In this document: piece by piece, positions 29,266-36,888 of the stretch
Numbering within the stretch: the first letter of the stretch is position 1
Layout: every line of letters starts with the position of its first letter
IMG/VR virus record: IMGVR_UViG_3300029448_000054
Span: 1 to 55,048 of that record
Strand: one strand, 5' to 3'
Origin: a virus
Lineage: Duplodnaviria > Caudoviricetes
DNA: 55,048 bases
Program-made: the position numbers and the translations under genes
The notes under the pieces: generated by a model
Database searches by the model: none
What the model saw: only the letters and a program-made list of their open reading frames with translations
What the model was told of the DNA's origin: nothing

Positions 29266-29793
29266 TCAAACGCTTAAATTATAATGAGTTAGCACTTTAT
29301 TGACTGGCTCAAAATCAGGTAGATCAGAAAACCTTTTGTATAAGAAGTTGATACCTGTATGCATAATCACTTTCATTTGTTCACTTTGACTTGAGTGGCG
29401 ATTAGAATAGAGTACCAGTTCAAGCATATCTGCCATTTTCAATCTATTCTTTTCATCTGCGGTAAGAACAAATATCAATCCAAGGTCTTCAAATACTTTT
29501 TTCTCAGCATCTTCAAATGCTTTTTGTACTTCAGGATAAGACCATTTAGCGGTAGCTGGTATATCACCAAGTATCAATTCAGGCACATCATGATACAATG
29601 AAGCCATGATGAGTTGTTTTGTACTATCAGGCCAGAGTTGGTCTATCAATATACTTACTGCGTATGAATGTGCTCCCACTGTCTGTCTTTCTGCTTGCAT
29701 GGCAACTGTATGGAAGCGCAATAAAAATTGAGCATCCCATGCTGTTGTCAAAGTTTTAATGTTTGGTATTGTCTGGCATTGGTGTCCCGCCAT
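29266..29793 (-). CDS. HD-domain 5'-deoxynucleotidase (YfbR-like)
   Basis: RFH...QTV..HS..V...LYHD.PE..LGDIP...K...K.ADMLE; start may lie further downstream. Confidence 0.85.
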   Translation of the reverse strand: MAGHQCQTIPNIKTLTTAWDAQFLLRFHTVAMQAERQTVGAHSYAVSILIDQLWPDSTKQLIMASLYHDVPELILGDIPATAKWSYPEVQKAFEDAEKKVFEDLGLIFVLTADEKNRLKMADMLELVLYSNRHSSQSEQMKVIMHTGINFLYKRFSDLPDFEPVNKVLTHYNLSV

Positions 29794-31675
29794 CTTTTAC
29801 CCCTCTTGACCAAGGCTTATCACTAAATGTCTTTTTTGCTTCGCCCCAACTCGGACCAAACTCTGCATCTACCACACTTGGTATCTGCATATCTACACAA
29901 GTCTCCATGATCTCTTGTATCACAGAGGCTGTTTCTGGTTCAGCTACTGATATATCTAATTCATCATGCACTTGTATCAATGGTGTTATACCTTCTTTAT
30001 GTAAAGCTACCATCGCAGCTTTTGTTTGGTCGGCAGCACTACCCTGTATCAATCGGTTAAGGGCTTTATATGTGAAAGCGCGTTTGATAGCTGGACCATG
30101 CTCAGCATATGCATCTTCATATGTCTGTGGTTTATACAATCCATAAGCATTTGGTTCCCATTTATCAAACCTACATTTGCGACCAAGCAGGGTACGGATA
30201 ACACCTTTATTAGAAGCACGGTTGACTACATAATCAGCAAGCTGTTGAACAAAAGGGACTTTACCATGATACTCTTTAAATAAATCTTTAGCATCCTCAT
30301 ACTCAAGTCCTAATTGTTCTGCCAGTTTATTCTTACCCATCCCATAGAACAAACCAAGGTTAATATCTTTTGCTTGTTTACGAGGTACTCCAACTATATC
30401 GGCAGCCATCTGGTGGAAATCTGTAGTAGCATCTACATTGTACTGGTCAGCAAACTCTTGTGCGCCAGTCAATTTAAGTAGGCTAGAATAATGGACGACG
30501 AGCCGTGGTTCTTGGCTACTATAATCAAAAGCACCCCACAGTTCACCTTCTTCGGGTAAGAACAATCCGCGTATCATAGGACCAATCTCAGCATTCCTTG
30601 CTGGTACTTGCTGTAGATTAGGATTGCTATAACTGAACCGACCTGTAACTGTCCCACCATCATCACTACGGAGGCTATGTGCCTCAGCATGAATACGACC
30701 GTTATGTTGGTGCTTTATAATAGTGTCGATAAAGGTGGTTCTAGCTTTATTCAGCTCACGAGCTCGAACCACGGCCTGAGGAAGTGCATGGGCATGGTTG
30801 GCTAGAAAATTCTTAGTGAAGCTAGGCTGGCCTGATTTGGGCGTTTTAGGGTAAGTCAACCCCTTTGCATCAAATGCTTTAGCGATACTTGCCGCTGCCC
30901 ATATATCAATATCTGTACCACCTGATTCTTGTAATACTTTTTCCTCTTCCCTTTGCAGATACACCTTTAACTCTTCAGCTTTTTCTAGGTCTACCCGCAC
31001 ACCTTTCTTACGCATATCAAATACAACTTTGAGGACTTGTAATTCAAGGTCAAATATATCTGCTATATCTTCTTTTACTATTATACCTTTAAAGAACTGC
31101 CACAATTTCAGGGTAAGTGCAGCATCCTGTTCAGCATATGCACCCACAAAATGAGCAGGGAGTTTCCACATTTCACTCTTAGCATTTACACCAAAAGAGT
31201 TAGCTGCTTCATATAAATCTTTTTCACTCTTACGCTCATTCAGGTAATCACGGCCTAAAGCATTGAGGGCATAACTAAACCTATTTTCATCAATAAGTGC
31301 AGCTACAATCATTGTATCTACAATACGGCCTTTTACTTCTATACCTTCTGCCCATAACCATCCAAGGTCATACATAGCATTATGCATAATATAATCACGC
31401 TCAATTGAGCATACATCAGCTAACCAGCGGAGTGTTTGTTTAGCATCAAGGTTACTACCATTATCATGCCGGATAGGGAAATACCAAGCAGCACCATCCA
31501 CAGCTACCGCGATGCCAATTACATAACCATCTTTACGAGGCCATCCACTACCACGAGATGTAAGGTTAGGGTCACAGGTTTCTAAATCAATAGATACCTC
31601 CCTAGCTTCCGATAGATCGGGATAGCCATCTGGCATTACCCATTCAGTCGGTGGTGTGAATAGTGGGAATTGCAT
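29756..31675 (-). CDS. polA: DNA polymerase family A with 3'-5' exonuclease
   Basis: Exo DLET/HNAMYD/YAEQDA; TGRFS..NPNLQQ; motif A DYSSQEPR; motif B RKQAKDINLGLFYG; motif C QVHDE. Confidence 0.96.
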   Translation of the reverse strand: MQFPLFTPPTEWVMPDGYPDLSEAREVSIDLETCDPNLTSRGSGWPRKDGYVIGIAVAVDGAAWYFPIRHDNGSNLDAKQTLRWLADVCSIERDYIMHNAMYDLGWLWAEGIEVKGRIVDTMIVAALIDENRFSYALNALGRDYLNERKSEKDLYEAANSFGVNAKSEMWKLPAHFVGAYAEQDAALTLKLWQFFKGIIVKEDIADIFDLELQVLKVVFDMRKKGVRVDLEKAEELKVYLQREEEKVLQESGGTDIDIWAAASIAKAFDAKGLTYPKTPKSGQPSFTKNFLANHAHALPQAVVRARELNKARTTFIDTIIKHQHNGRIHAEAHSLRSDDGGTVTGRFSYSNPNLQQVPARNAEIGPMIRGLFLPEEGELWGAFDYSSQEPRLVVHYSSLLKLTGAQEFADQYNVDATTDFHQMAADIVGVPRKQAKDINLGLFYGMGKNKLAEQLGLEYEDAKDLFKEYHGKVPFVQQLADYVVNRASNKGVIRTLLGRKCRFDKWEPNAYGLYKPQTYEDAYAEHGPAIKRAFTYKALNRLIQGSAADQTKAAMVALHKEGITPLIQVHDELDISVAEPETASVIQEIMETCVDMQIPSVVDAEFGPSWGEAKKTFSDKPWSRGVKDGGTPMPDNTKH

Positions 31676-31817
31676 CTTTTACCTTTACCATCATAGGTTG
31701 GTTACATTTAGAACAGTGAGGCCATTTGTTTTTGAGTTTACGGAAGGTAATAACTTTCTTTTCCCTTCCGCATTCACATTCAGCCAATACTTCTCTATCT
31801 AGCTTTTCGTTATCCAT
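31644..31817 (-). CDS. 57-aa Zn-ribbon protein (not in ORF track)
   Basis: MDNEKLDREVLAECECGREKK...WPHCSKCNQPM; GAGG RBS; fills the gap before polA. Confidence 0.55.
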   Translation of the reverse strand: MDNEKLDREVLAECECGREKKVITFRKLKNKWPHCSKCNQPMMVKVKDAIPTIHTTD

Positions 31818-35370: not shown

Positions 35371-36267
35371 CTACGCCACCTCCCCATGTACAGCCTCCAG
35401 CATAGAACCTTGTAACCCATTATACTTACTGCGAGGTGTACCTTGACCAAGGCGTACACGCTCATATTTATCCCACTCGCATAAGCTATGTTCAATGCAA
35501 CGCATATCCACTGCCAAATTCGGGATGTGATCACCAAGATAACGGTGCGAATCTTCGTGTAGATCTTGCATCTCCCTATTACTTTGATAGGCACTTAACG
35601 CTTTAGTGAGGGGTCTGCCATGGATCCTGTTGAGGCCACGTTTTGCTCCCGGACCAGCGTTTGCCCATTTGTATTTATCTTTTGCTTGATCAAGGACAGG
35701 TGTGTAGTTGAGGTCTGTGACGACCTCATAAGACATAAAACCTCCCCCGCCCCATCCTTTATATGCACCCAACGCTTTGTGTACTTCTTCCAGCGATTGC
35801 GTATCAGCGGCGGTCTGCGCCAACGCTTCTCTATTCTCCCATATCGGCGAAAGGAAATGGTCAACAACGACCTCCGACTTTGGTGCTTTAAGACCTTGGT
35901 TAGTGATTATATACGCACCAGTGAATGTCCGTAAACCATTGTCAATTCTAGTTTGTATAAGTTCTTTTGTGCGAGCAGGATTAAATTCTTCTACCCAACC
36001 ATGTTCTTCAGCAAACTCACTTGTGCCAACCATACGAAACATACAACAGTTAAATATCATTTCACCATGTGGGCGGTTATCATTTGGCTTAGTCCAGTTT
36101 TGGCGCATCCAAACAGTCACCCTATCATTCTCACGGAAAGGGTTAGTAAACTTATAATCCCGCAGTATAGGGTCATCAGTCCAAGGGGCTGGTTGCCCCT
36201 TGGCTCGTTTTTGGTAAATAGCGTGACGCTCGTTTATCCAGTAGCAGAACCTTTCTATGTTCTCCAT
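35371..36267 (-). CDS. aGPT-Pplase1 / 5hmdU-kinase helical-domain family DNA-modification protein
   Basis: F.YWINERH.IY.KR..G.P.PWTDDPIL..YKFTN.FRE.DR, FTGAYII, G.GF..YEV..DL, GPGA.RGL, EH.LCE.DKY. Confidence 0.85.
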   Translation of the reverse strand: MENIERFCYWINERHAIYQKRAKGQPAPWTDDPILRDYKFTNPFRENDRVTVWMRQNWTKPNDNRPHGEMIFNCCMFRMVGTSEFAEEHGWVEEFNPARTKELIQTRIDNGLRTFTGAYIITNQGLKAPKSEVVVDHFLSPIWENREALAQTAADTQSLEEVHKALGAYKGWGGGGFMSYEVVTDLNYTPVLDQAKDKYKWANAGPGAKRGLNRIHGRPLTKALSAYQSNREMQDLHEDSHRYLGDHIPNLAVDMRCIEHSLCEWDKYERVRLGQGTPRSKYNGLQGSMLEAVHGEVA

Positions 36268-36270
36268 AAT

Positions 36271-36888
36271 TTATTCTCCTAACTGGATACAGCCTTTTTC
36301 AATAGCAAGGCGAATATCAACGCTATTGCCTCCGGGACTTAGTGCTTTCATAGCGGTAAGTGCTTCACCCACTGTTGGTGATTTAACAAGGGCTTCAAAG
36401 TTATGCCAACGATTACTGTTTTCACGGTAAGGGTTTTGGTACACACCTGAAGCACCAGCAATCACAAGTATCTTAGCATTTAAATCATACTTAGATTTTG
36501 CTACACGCTTTGGTTTATCGGTTACAATAGCCTCAATGCCTTGTGGCTCGGGCGTGATATCTACTACTTCGGCAGTCATGTGTTTCTCCTTTGAAACAGG
36601 TTTATATTTCTTAGCTTTCTCATGAACATACTCAGCAAAATTCTTATGAAAGCTGGGATAATTTGGCAGGGTACATTCACCCTGAGTAGCTGTAACGACA
36701 CTGCGTAACTCTTCTTCACTGTATGTATCCTGTAATTGATGTAGTTCAGAGAACACGATACTATGCTCATTCAATTCTTTGCACTCCCTTAACTCTCGTA
36801 AGGATTTGAAAACAAAGTAAGAATACGGATCATTACGGTTACTTTCTATACTGTTTTCTAATACAGCATATGTCTTTATGGCTACCAT
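36271..36888 (-). CDS. Two-domain hypothetical protein at the head of the modification operon; possible internal start at 36579
   Basis: AGAAAGGAGG RBS at 36888; second AAGGAG RBS before in-frame ATG 36579. Confidence 0.65.
   Translation of the reverse strand: MVAIKTYAVLENSIESNRNDPYSYFVFKSLRELRECKELNEHSIVFSELHQLQDTYSEEELRSVVTATQGECTLPNYPSFHKNFAEYVHEKAKKYKPVSKEKHMTAEVVDITPEPQGIEAIVTDKPKRVAKSKYDLNAKILVIAGASGVYQNPYRENSNRWHNFEALVKSPTVGEALTAMKALSPGGNSVDIRLAIEKGCIQLGE

Follow-up and report, generated by a model that had tools for sequence, protein, structure and literature searches.

A recurrent glycosyltransferase and radical SAM module of marine phages and a predicted kinase-independent hypermodification of thymidine

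The IMG/VR virus record IMGVR_UViG_3300029448_000054 (Duplodnaviria; Caudoviricetes), complete at 55,048 bases and with a completeness rating of 94%, was analysed over its whole length, referred to here as the window. It is best explained as an uncultured marine podovirus-like phage, and a block of ten open reading frames (ORFs) at 29266-36888 on the minus strand, spaced by gaps of 2-83 nt or overlapping by 4-50 nt, as its replication and nucleotide module. Four of the genes are of most concern: a thymidylate synthase (TS) homolog, a clade-1 aGPT-Pplase (Pplase1), a TAGT-family glycosyltransferase and a radical S-adenosylmethionine (SAM) enzyme. The reading favoured here, with a probability of about 0.6, is that 5-hydroxymethyldeoxyuridine (5hmdU) in the DNA is glycosylated without the action of a kinase and that the sugar is then tailored by radical chemistry. 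A 5hmdU basis for DNA hypermodification is already known, and what would be new is the chemistry downstream of it.

The TAGT and its radical SAM partner are a coupled unit. Amongst 95 distinct contig groups, 47 carry the radical SAM gene and, of these, 42 also carry the TAGT, 39 the TS homolog, 37 Pplase1 and 33 all four, whilst a further 36 groups have Pplase1 and the TS homolog with neither TAGT nor radical SAM gene. The counts were made with hidden Markov models (HMMs) built from the hits themselves, a group being defined by an overlap of at least 2 kb at 99.9% identity or more; contig ends truncate many loci, which makes the misses upper bounds, and two (L104 and L167) were left out. The recurrence of this gene set across dozens of distinct viral contigs means that the cluster is no mere product of chance, and an earlier reading of this DNA from its sequence only, which had grouped the four genes on the strength of this one locus, is borne out in describing them as one cluster.

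The predicted hydroxymethylase and its precursor pool

The first step of the pathway is assigned to the TS homolog (32178..33206, minus strand; Pfam Thymidylat_synt, E 9.6e-20; phrog_5131, E 3.7e-104), a predicted dUMP hydroxymethylase whose assignment is well supported by its signatures. Its closest relative of solved structure is the hydroxymethylase MilA (E 1.2e-18), compared with 3.8e-11 for the best true TS, and alignment with MilA and ThyA places D162 at the position of ThyA L143, C165 as the catalytic nucleophile, and D188 and N197 as the equivalents of D169 and N177. In ThyA, Leu143 excludes water and Asn177 specifies uracil, and both serve as criteria for recognising TS-type hydroxymethylases (PMC13326640). 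Amongst 73 unique homologs from related contigs, the catalytic Cys, an Arg and the equivalents of Asp169 and Asn177 are each present in 73 of 73, and the L143 position is occupied by Asp in 69, Ala in two and Ser in two, never by a bulky hydrophobic residue. The protein is also 44% identical over 326 aa to gp51 of phage PaMx11, the DNA of which contains a 5hmdU-derived base (PMC8989533). Asp at L143, the retention of N177 and D169 and the identity to gp51 all agree with the earlier naming of this protein as a TS of the dUMP hydroxymethylase type.

It is very improbable that the homolog is an ordinary thymidylate synthase, carried as an auxiliary metabolic gene by a phage that makes no hypermodified base. 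Its best NCBIfam matches are indeed thymidylate synthase models, but all of them fall below cut-off, and the idea has to contend with Asp in place of Leu143 in 69 of the 73 homologs, with the closer match to MilA, and with the synteny and identity shared with the PaMx11 enzyme. Two other activities were ruled out: dCMP hydroxymethylase, the N177 position holding Asn and not Asp in every homolog, and the 5-hydroxy-dCMP (5hodCMP) synthase of RB69 and DLP3, for which the criteria are D169N with N177D (PMC13326640) and which is incompatible with the Asp and Asn kept in 73 of 73.

The last gene of the block (29266..29793, minus strand) encodes an HD-domain YfbR-like 5'-deoxynucleotidase (Pfam YfbR-like, E 7.3e-9, and HD_3), as had been proposed. 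It is 32% identical to PaMx11 gp52, the gene that follows the TS homolog in that phage, and probably reshapes the nucleotide pool.

The TAGT glycosyltransferase and its radical SAM partner

The TAGT gene (34293..35078, minus strand) encodes a GT-A glycosyltransferase that matches PF20691 (E 1.8e-15) and phrog_842 (E 6.6e-44); its D80-D81-D82 motif is intact, D81 and D82 being invariant and D80 at least 90% conserved in 40 homologs, and the original TAGT-type label stands. No meaningful match was found amongst the sequences of solved structures, and the nearest TAGT proteins of cultured phages, in a collection of 50,697 phage records, are 29-32% identical. The protein is predicted to be a DNA glycosyltransferase. 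A member of the same Pfam family, the T2/T6 enzyme of gentiobiosyl-hydroxymethylcytosine synthesis, acts post-replicatively on phage DNA (PMC13216743), and, whatever their Pfam family, glycosyltransferases encoded beside phage TET proteins likewise add sugars, glucose or N-acetylglucosamine, to 5-hydroxymethylcytosine (PMC8256090). However, both of those systems start from cytosine, by way of a dCMP hydroxymethylase with Asp at the N177 position or of a methyltransferase and TET, whereas the residue here is Asn. There is also a likeness to base J in the predicted intermediate, 5-hydroxymethyluracil (5hmU) in DNA with a sugar on its hydroxymethyl group, and in the use of a TAGT with a DxD motif; Iyer et al. 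reportedly recognised the kinetoplastid base J glucosyltransferase (JGT) in 2013 as a TAGT-like GT-A enzyme. Base J is made by JBP1/2 and JGT, whereas here the 5hmU would come from a nucleotide-level TS homolog, there is no TET/JBP protein and a radical SAM partner is added, and the earlier proposal that the final base is itself base-J-like was conjectural and overstated.

The adjoining gene (33290..34342, minus strand) encodes a radical SAM enzyme with a twitch/SPASM-type C-terminal domain (Pfam Radical_SAM, E 8.5e-8; SPASM, E 3.3e-12), in agreement with the sequence-only reading; it lies below every NCBIfam cut-off, its best matches there being the spiro-SPASM and twitch-domain families. In 50 homologs C34 and C41 of the CX3CX2C motif are invariant and C38 is at least 90% conserved, and towards the C-terminus C229, C247, C291 and C294 are invariant, with the spacing C-x17-C-x43-C-x2-C, and C248 is at least 90% conserved. 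The enzyme shares its CX3CX2C site with BtrN of butirosin synthesis (PDB 4m7t), and its four invariant C-terminal cysteines align one for one with cysteines of BtrN that presumably bind the auxiliary cluster of that protein. This pattern may point to a single auxiliary cluster rather than the 7-8-Cys set of a full SPASM domain. The substrate of BtrN is a sugar-like polyol, and the analogy points to hydrogen abstraction from a sugar-like substrate. Unlike BtrN, however, the phage enzyme is about 80 residues longer, and the match (E 1.4e-4) covers the C-terminal domain only.

The last 50 nt of the TAGT gene are shared with the radical SAM ORF if the latter is read from its first ATG; since homologs begin near residue 20, translation may in fact start at the second Met (residue 12). 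The overlap of the two genes makes fusions easy to derive, and natural TAGT-Radical_SAM-SPASM fusions are represented by P0065 (579 aa) and P0066 (588 aa), two amongst the 150 representatives listed from 152 radical SAM relatives found at E<=1e-30 in a scan of 1.84 billion representatives. A further homolog, P0084 (623 aa), has an intein with an HNH endonuclease domain between its radical SAM core and SPASM domain. Complex prediction for the TAGT (alignment A3) and the radical SAM enzyme (alignment A2) gave a score of 0.00 in a run without controls, which speaks neither for nor against binding.

The four core genes are found together well beyond the immediate relatives of this phage. The contig that encodes P0065 (L106) carries Pplase1, the fusion, the TS homolog, the HD nucleotidase and PolA; in L105, with a PolA that is 27% identical, the four recur in another order, and further orders are seen in the distant phages L110, L150 and L168. 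In L105 a uracil-DNA glycosylase family gene (L105:15205-15804) lies between Pplase1 and the TS homolog, which is odd for a phage predicted to handle uracil derivatives, and searches of PHROGs and Pfam with the 309-aa and 237-aa proteins of that contig gave nothing. Directly upstream of the TAGT and radical SAM genes of L153, a viral contig of 97.7 kb, is a gene for a class I SAM methyltransferase (L153:8236-9153), the product of which may methylate the sugar. A scan of viral contigs with a distant TAGT, P0056, returned no relative.

Amongst the 50,697 records of cultured phages there is no relative of the radical SAM enzyme above 23% identity, the seven matches at E<=1e-5 all being at or below that figure and six of them coming from Campylobacter phages. 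It is because of this lack that no virion DNA from a phage with the module has been analysed. A search of 185,579 species genomes, with two peptide patterns only, matched two contigs of metagenome-assembled genomes (MAGs), both phage-like and both with the same module; as far as searched, the enzyme is phage-restricted.

Whether the sugar is in fact the target of the radical chemistry can be questioned. The enzyme might act instead on the base or on the bond between base and sugar, converting an O-linked into a C-C linked sugar or turning the methyl or hydroxymethyl group at C5 into an acceptor radical. There is a precedent in the M6 gp53 isomerase, which takes glycine from an N- to a C-linkage (PMC8989533), the TAGT-radical SAM fusions imply one common substrate, and in two contigs discussed below (L108 and L109) the pair occurs with no TS homolog in view. 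We regard such chemistry as unlikely, however, as the Cys pattern matches that of a sugar or cyclitol dehydrogenase and no M6-like record matches the enzyme at E<=1e-5, for which latter reason it was also ruled out as a homolog of gp53.

The clade-1 Pplase and the missing kinase

In every characterised thymidine hypermodification a P-loop 5-hmdU DNA kinase acts first and is followed by a clade-2 Pplase, ADDT, so that the route runs from DNA kinase to amino-acid or polyamine transferase (PMC8989533, PMC13458397). Homologs of the PaMx11 kinase gp49 were absent from the window (best E 0.31) and, at E<=1e-3, from 165 related loci. No match at E<=1 was given anywhere in the record by the AAA_33, HMUDK_HMUD1 and Zeta_toxin kinase profiles, by ADDT (PF18724, the clade-2 aGPT-Pplase), by the Tet_JBP thymine hydroxylase or by dCMP deaminase, and the sole clear Walker A motif of the window is in a UvrD helicase. 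By Pfam, the pyridoxal phosphate (PLP), flavin adenine dinucleotide (FAD) and acetyltransferase tailoring enzymes of M6, ViI and PaMx11 are also lacking. The 205-aa product of the first gene of the block was considered as a hidden kinase and rejected, having no motif, no family and no counterpart in distant copies of the module. By the profile and gp49 searches the activating kinase is absent from the genome.

Pplase1 (35371..36267, minus strand; 298 aa) matches PF18723 at E 4.9e-53, which confirms its original aGPT-Pplase1-like label, and PaMx11 gp50 at an hhalign E of 6.9e-49. PF18723, now 'HMUDK_hel', is the renamed aGPT-Pplase1 family, and in GenBank both names are in use for a set of Pseudomonas phage homologs (H39-H42) that barely differ from one another and all have 34.8% identity to the protein here. 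The name HMUDK_hel arises because gp186 of SP10 is a fusion of kinase and Pplase1 (Table 3 of PMC5889632); the present protein has no P-loop and matches PF18723 alone amongst Pfam families. An E259-H260-x-x-C263 motif is invariant in 25 homologs (alignment A1), and the AlphaFold2 (AF2) model is all-helical with a predicted local distance difference test score (pLDDT) of 87. Nothing was found amongst the sequences of solved structures with either the single sequence or the A1 profile, and a Foldseek search of the model against the PDB had a best E of 0.47, with nothing at or below 0.001 and helix-hairpin-helix (HhH) glycosylases only at template-modelling (TM) scores of 0.26-0.37.

It had been stated that aGPT-Pplase proteins act on activated 5hmdU, but this has been shown for clade 2 (ADDT, PF18724) only. 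No activity is on record for the clade-1 protein here, and the M6 glycine-transfer reaction was sufficient when gp55 was omitted (PMC8989533), the M6 clade-1 member being named differently in Table 3 of PMC5889632 (2018) and Table 1 of PMC8989533 (2021). Of 78 contig groups with the TS homolog, 70 also have Pplase1, regardless of which transferase is present. The most likely function of Pplase1 is to recognise 5hmdU, flip it and offer it to the transferase. Catalysis, by attack of Cys263 at C6, is possible, and it is the basis of a different account in which Cys263 attacks C6 of 5hmdU or of a glycosylated form, the substituent on the C5 methylene is expelled and another nucleophile is installed, so that the final base is no O-glycoside and the TAGT and radical SAM enzyme supply or prepare the leaving or incoming group. 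The invariance of E259, H260 and C263 and the constant company of the TS homolog would suit this account, and the three residues fall on E243, T244 and C247 of PUGT (PaMx11 gp46), which provide metal binding and the nucleophile attacking C6 (PMC11472151). The stretch containing them is, however, the only one that aligns with PUGT, at an hhalign probability of just 2.8%; in addition, hydroxyl and glycoside are poor leaving groups where no activating kinase is present, the omission of gp55 tells against it only as far as gp55 is the M6 clade-1 member, on which the two papers differ, and in L095 and L096 nothing lies between Pplase1 and TS. Substitution centred on Pplase1 is given little credence.

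Of 153 Pplase1 relatives found in IMG/VR, the best 80 were retained. In this group of phages the conserved backbone begins with DUF932 and a variable gene and continues with Pplase1, a slot, TS, the 132-aa protein, the 57-aa protein, PolA and the HD nucleotidase. The slot may hold the TAGT and radical SAM genes with or without a zinc-ribbon gene, a GT-B glycosyltransferase of about 430 aa (Glyco_trans_1_4, E 8.9e-6; for example L044:10912-12204), or a protein of about 330 aa weakly similar to the GT-B enzyme (for example L047:10885-11856, for which PHROGs and Pfam gave nothing) and once followed by an FkbM methyltransferase (L087:11982-12722); in L095 and L096 it is empty and Pplase1 adjoins TS. 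From this variation it follows that the hydroxymethylase and Pplase1 are a constant core to which an exchangeable transferase cassette is added. The differing cassettes also suggest that sugar chemistry is swapped among related phages. PaMx11 has the same Pplase1-TS-HD-PolA backbone, its gene order being kinase, gp50 (PF18723), TS, HD, two small genes and PolA, with a cassette of kinase, ADDT, FAD and acetyltransferase genes upstream.

The clusters of M6/YuA, PaMx11, ViI, phiW-14 and SP10 (PMC5889632, PMC8989533) thus share with the present one a 5hmdU-based post-replicative logic, and the likeness to PaMx11 extends to the TS-type hydroxymethylase, to the clade-1 Pplase that immediately precedes it and to the adjoining HD and PolA genes. 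Unlike M6, ViI and PaMx11, however, this phage has no 5-hmdU DNA kinase and no ADDT/Pplase2, and has a TAGT and an unrelated radical SAM enzyme instead.

Genome setting, the proposed pathway and its meaning

The ten-gene cluster is present as first described. Seven of its ten proteins have the Pfam domains that had been proposed, with which PHROGs agrees; the label MazG-like was not upheld and the first gene is without a family. That gene (36271..36888, minus strand) encodes the 205-aa protein, rightly listed as unknown, which has no match in Pfam, PHROG or NCBIfam and Atlas scores of at most 0.79, giving no usable lead. It is 26-99% identical in close relatives, its profile has no match in L105, L106, L110, L142, L144, L145 or L150, and it is poorly conserved and outside the module in distant phages. 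The NrdR-type zinc-ribbon protein (35075..35368, minus strand; 97 aa), with a Lys/Pro-rich and acidic tail, was correctly recognised (Zn_ribbon_NrdR, E 1.2e-8); by tblastn its gene has no match in relatives lacking TAGT and radical SAM genes, nor in L020-L022, L067 and L091, which have them, and its presence in the inserted cassette is optional.

The conserved 132-aa helical protein (31810..32208, minus strand; alignment A4) is the one called MazG-like. It matches no Pfam, NCBIfam or PF07659 model, and its AF2 model (pLDDT 84) finds nothing in the PDB at E<=0.001, a MazG-like pyrophosphatase appearing at E 8.3 (TM 0.29-0.34). In BFVD the labels 'Nucleotide modification associated domain 1' (Nmad1) and DUF1599 are favoured at E 0.02-1 and TM 0.46-0.58, none at or below 0.001, with MazG-labelled proteins at ranks 31-32 only; Atlas also leads to DUF1599, and from its model the protein looks Nmad1/DUF1599-like. 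The 57-aa protein (31644..31817, minus strand) has no match in Pfam, PHROGs or NCBIfam, is 38-98% identical in relatives, and in its translation has a CxC...CxxC pattern that fits a putative zinc ribbon.

PolA (29756..31675, minus strand) was correctly identified as a family A DNA polymerase, with DNA_pol_A (E 6e-61) and 3'-5' exonuclease (E 1.3e-7) domains. Its gene has 66% nucleotide identity to PolA of Pelagibacter phage HTVC027P and, apart from it, nothing close in DNA sequence to the 7.6-kb block is present amongst the 50,697 phage records. Nearly all genes of the record are on the minus strand, and the block is part of a replication module in which a DUF932 protein, the UvrD-type helicase, an AEP primase and Pam3 gp32-34-like proteins are encoded upstream. 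The DUF932 gene (37032-38057; E 4.6e-46) is directly upstream of the module in closely related contigs too, and three consecutive genes at 41564-43232 match Pam3 gp34-, gp33- and gp32-like families (E 4.7e-70, 1.5e-31 and 3.7e-24) and are flanked by the primase and a plus-strand SNF2 helicase. Between 28800 and 38500, promoter-like sites (22, against a shuffled mean of 26.7) were not enriched, and terminator-like sites (13, against 8.1) were judged not to be.

The gene combination had been called unusual, and this holds in part. Pelagiphages of the HTVC023P type have TS, Pplase1, 5'-deoxynucleotidase and 'beta-glucosyl-HMC-alpha-glucosyltransferase' genes near PolA, a set termed 'DNA hypermodification partner AMGs' (auxiliary metabolic genes) in 2022 (PMC9599517). 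That part of the combination was thus already on record, whilst the main text of the paper mentions no radical SAM, rSAM, SPASM, iron-sulfur or Fe-S protein and discusses neither a missing kinase nor a fusion. No TAGT-radical SAM pairing or product of one is described in the running text of the full-text literature searched, and the earlier statement that no characterised base is known from this combination is upheld there; Figure 2 and the supplementary contig lists of PMC8989533 may show glycosyltransferase or radical SAM combinations.

A number of points weigh against the view that 5hmdU is glycosylated and its sugar then tailored by radical chemistry. The T2/T6 member of PF20691 puts a second sugar on an already glucosylated base (PMC13216743), no TAGT acting on 5hmdU is reported in the literature searched, and direct transfer to 5hmdU is an assumption made because the genome has no other recognised glycosyltransferase. 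The similarity to BtrN is weak and confined to one domain, Pplase1 has neither a solved relative nor more than a faint resemblance to PUGT, and the genome is 94% and not 100% complete. Twitch/SPASM enzymes also modify peptides and cofactors. Five of the 47 radical SAM groups are without a detected TAGT (L107, L122, L123, L158 and L159/160); in L122 a 346-aa protein with no PHROGs or Pfam match stands in its place, and in L158-160 a 37%-identical radical SAM gene is alone. Several groups, mostly on short or cut contigs, lack TS or Pplase1. In L108 (620-6871) and L109 the TAGT and radical SAM genes are directly upstream of large terminase, portal and Mu-F-like genes, with neither TS nor Pplase1 on the 7-10 kb contig, and the pair may therefore not need 5hmdU. 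Finally, every step of the pathway is drawn from gene families and their context.

The position of the pair beside terminase and portal genes in L108 and L109 could also be taken to mean that it modifies a protein, a peptide or a host surface glycan, with only TS, Pplase1 and the HD nucleotidase concerned with DNA. GT-A enzymes are versatile, and SPASM/twitch enzymes are often peptide maturases. Such a target is nevertheless highly unlikely, given that the pair lies between Pplase1 and TS here, in close relatives (gaps of 1.9-2.5 kb) and in L106, is near them in other lineages, and is joined by both in 33 of 47 groups; that no conserved small peptide gene travels with it across lineages; that the only relatives found in species genomes, by the two peptide patterns, were the two phage-like MAG contigs; and that the characterised PF20691 members act on DNA (PMC13216743).

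In the pathway proposed for kinase-independent glycosylation, the TS homolog would convert dUMP to 5-hydroxymethyl-dUMP before replication, whilst the HD nucleotidase, possibly helped by the Nmad1-like protein, would bias the pool against dTMP and dTTP. Host kinases would raise the product to the triphosphate and the phage PolA would incorporate 5hmdU. From this point on the scheme is built from family membership, fusion and co-occurrence. After replication the TAGT would move a sugar from a host nucleoside diphosphate (NDP) sugar to the hydroxymethyl group of 5hmdU, giving a base-J-like intermediate, and Pplase1 would recognise 5hmdU on behalf of whichever transferase the phage has. The radical SAM enzyme, as an obligate partner of the TAGT, would abstract hydrogen from the sugar or from its NDP-sugar donor and so oxidise, epimerise or dehydrate it, as BtrN does with its aminocyclitol, and the product would be expected to protect phage DNA from host nucleases.

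The module points to a second route of thymidine hypermodification, by glycosylation and radical chemistry, and occurs in several phage lineages, in no fewer than 47 distinct viral contig groups. A bolder form of the proposal, whose chances we would put somewhat short of even, is that a portable TAGT-radical SAM unit writes a keto, deoxy, epimerised or C-C linked sugar on hydroxymethyluracil DNA without a kinase, a chemically undescribed modification that would be common in marine phages, with the clade-1 Pplase as a general presenter of 5hmdU. The predictions are of a new natural DNA base and of a radical SAM enzyme acting on a DNA-bound or DNA-destined sugar, and a testable role is offered for the long-unexplained clade-1 Pplase. 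The enzymes could become tools for labelling DNA, and in abundant marine phages such bases would affect restriction, evasion of CRISPR and sequencing bias.

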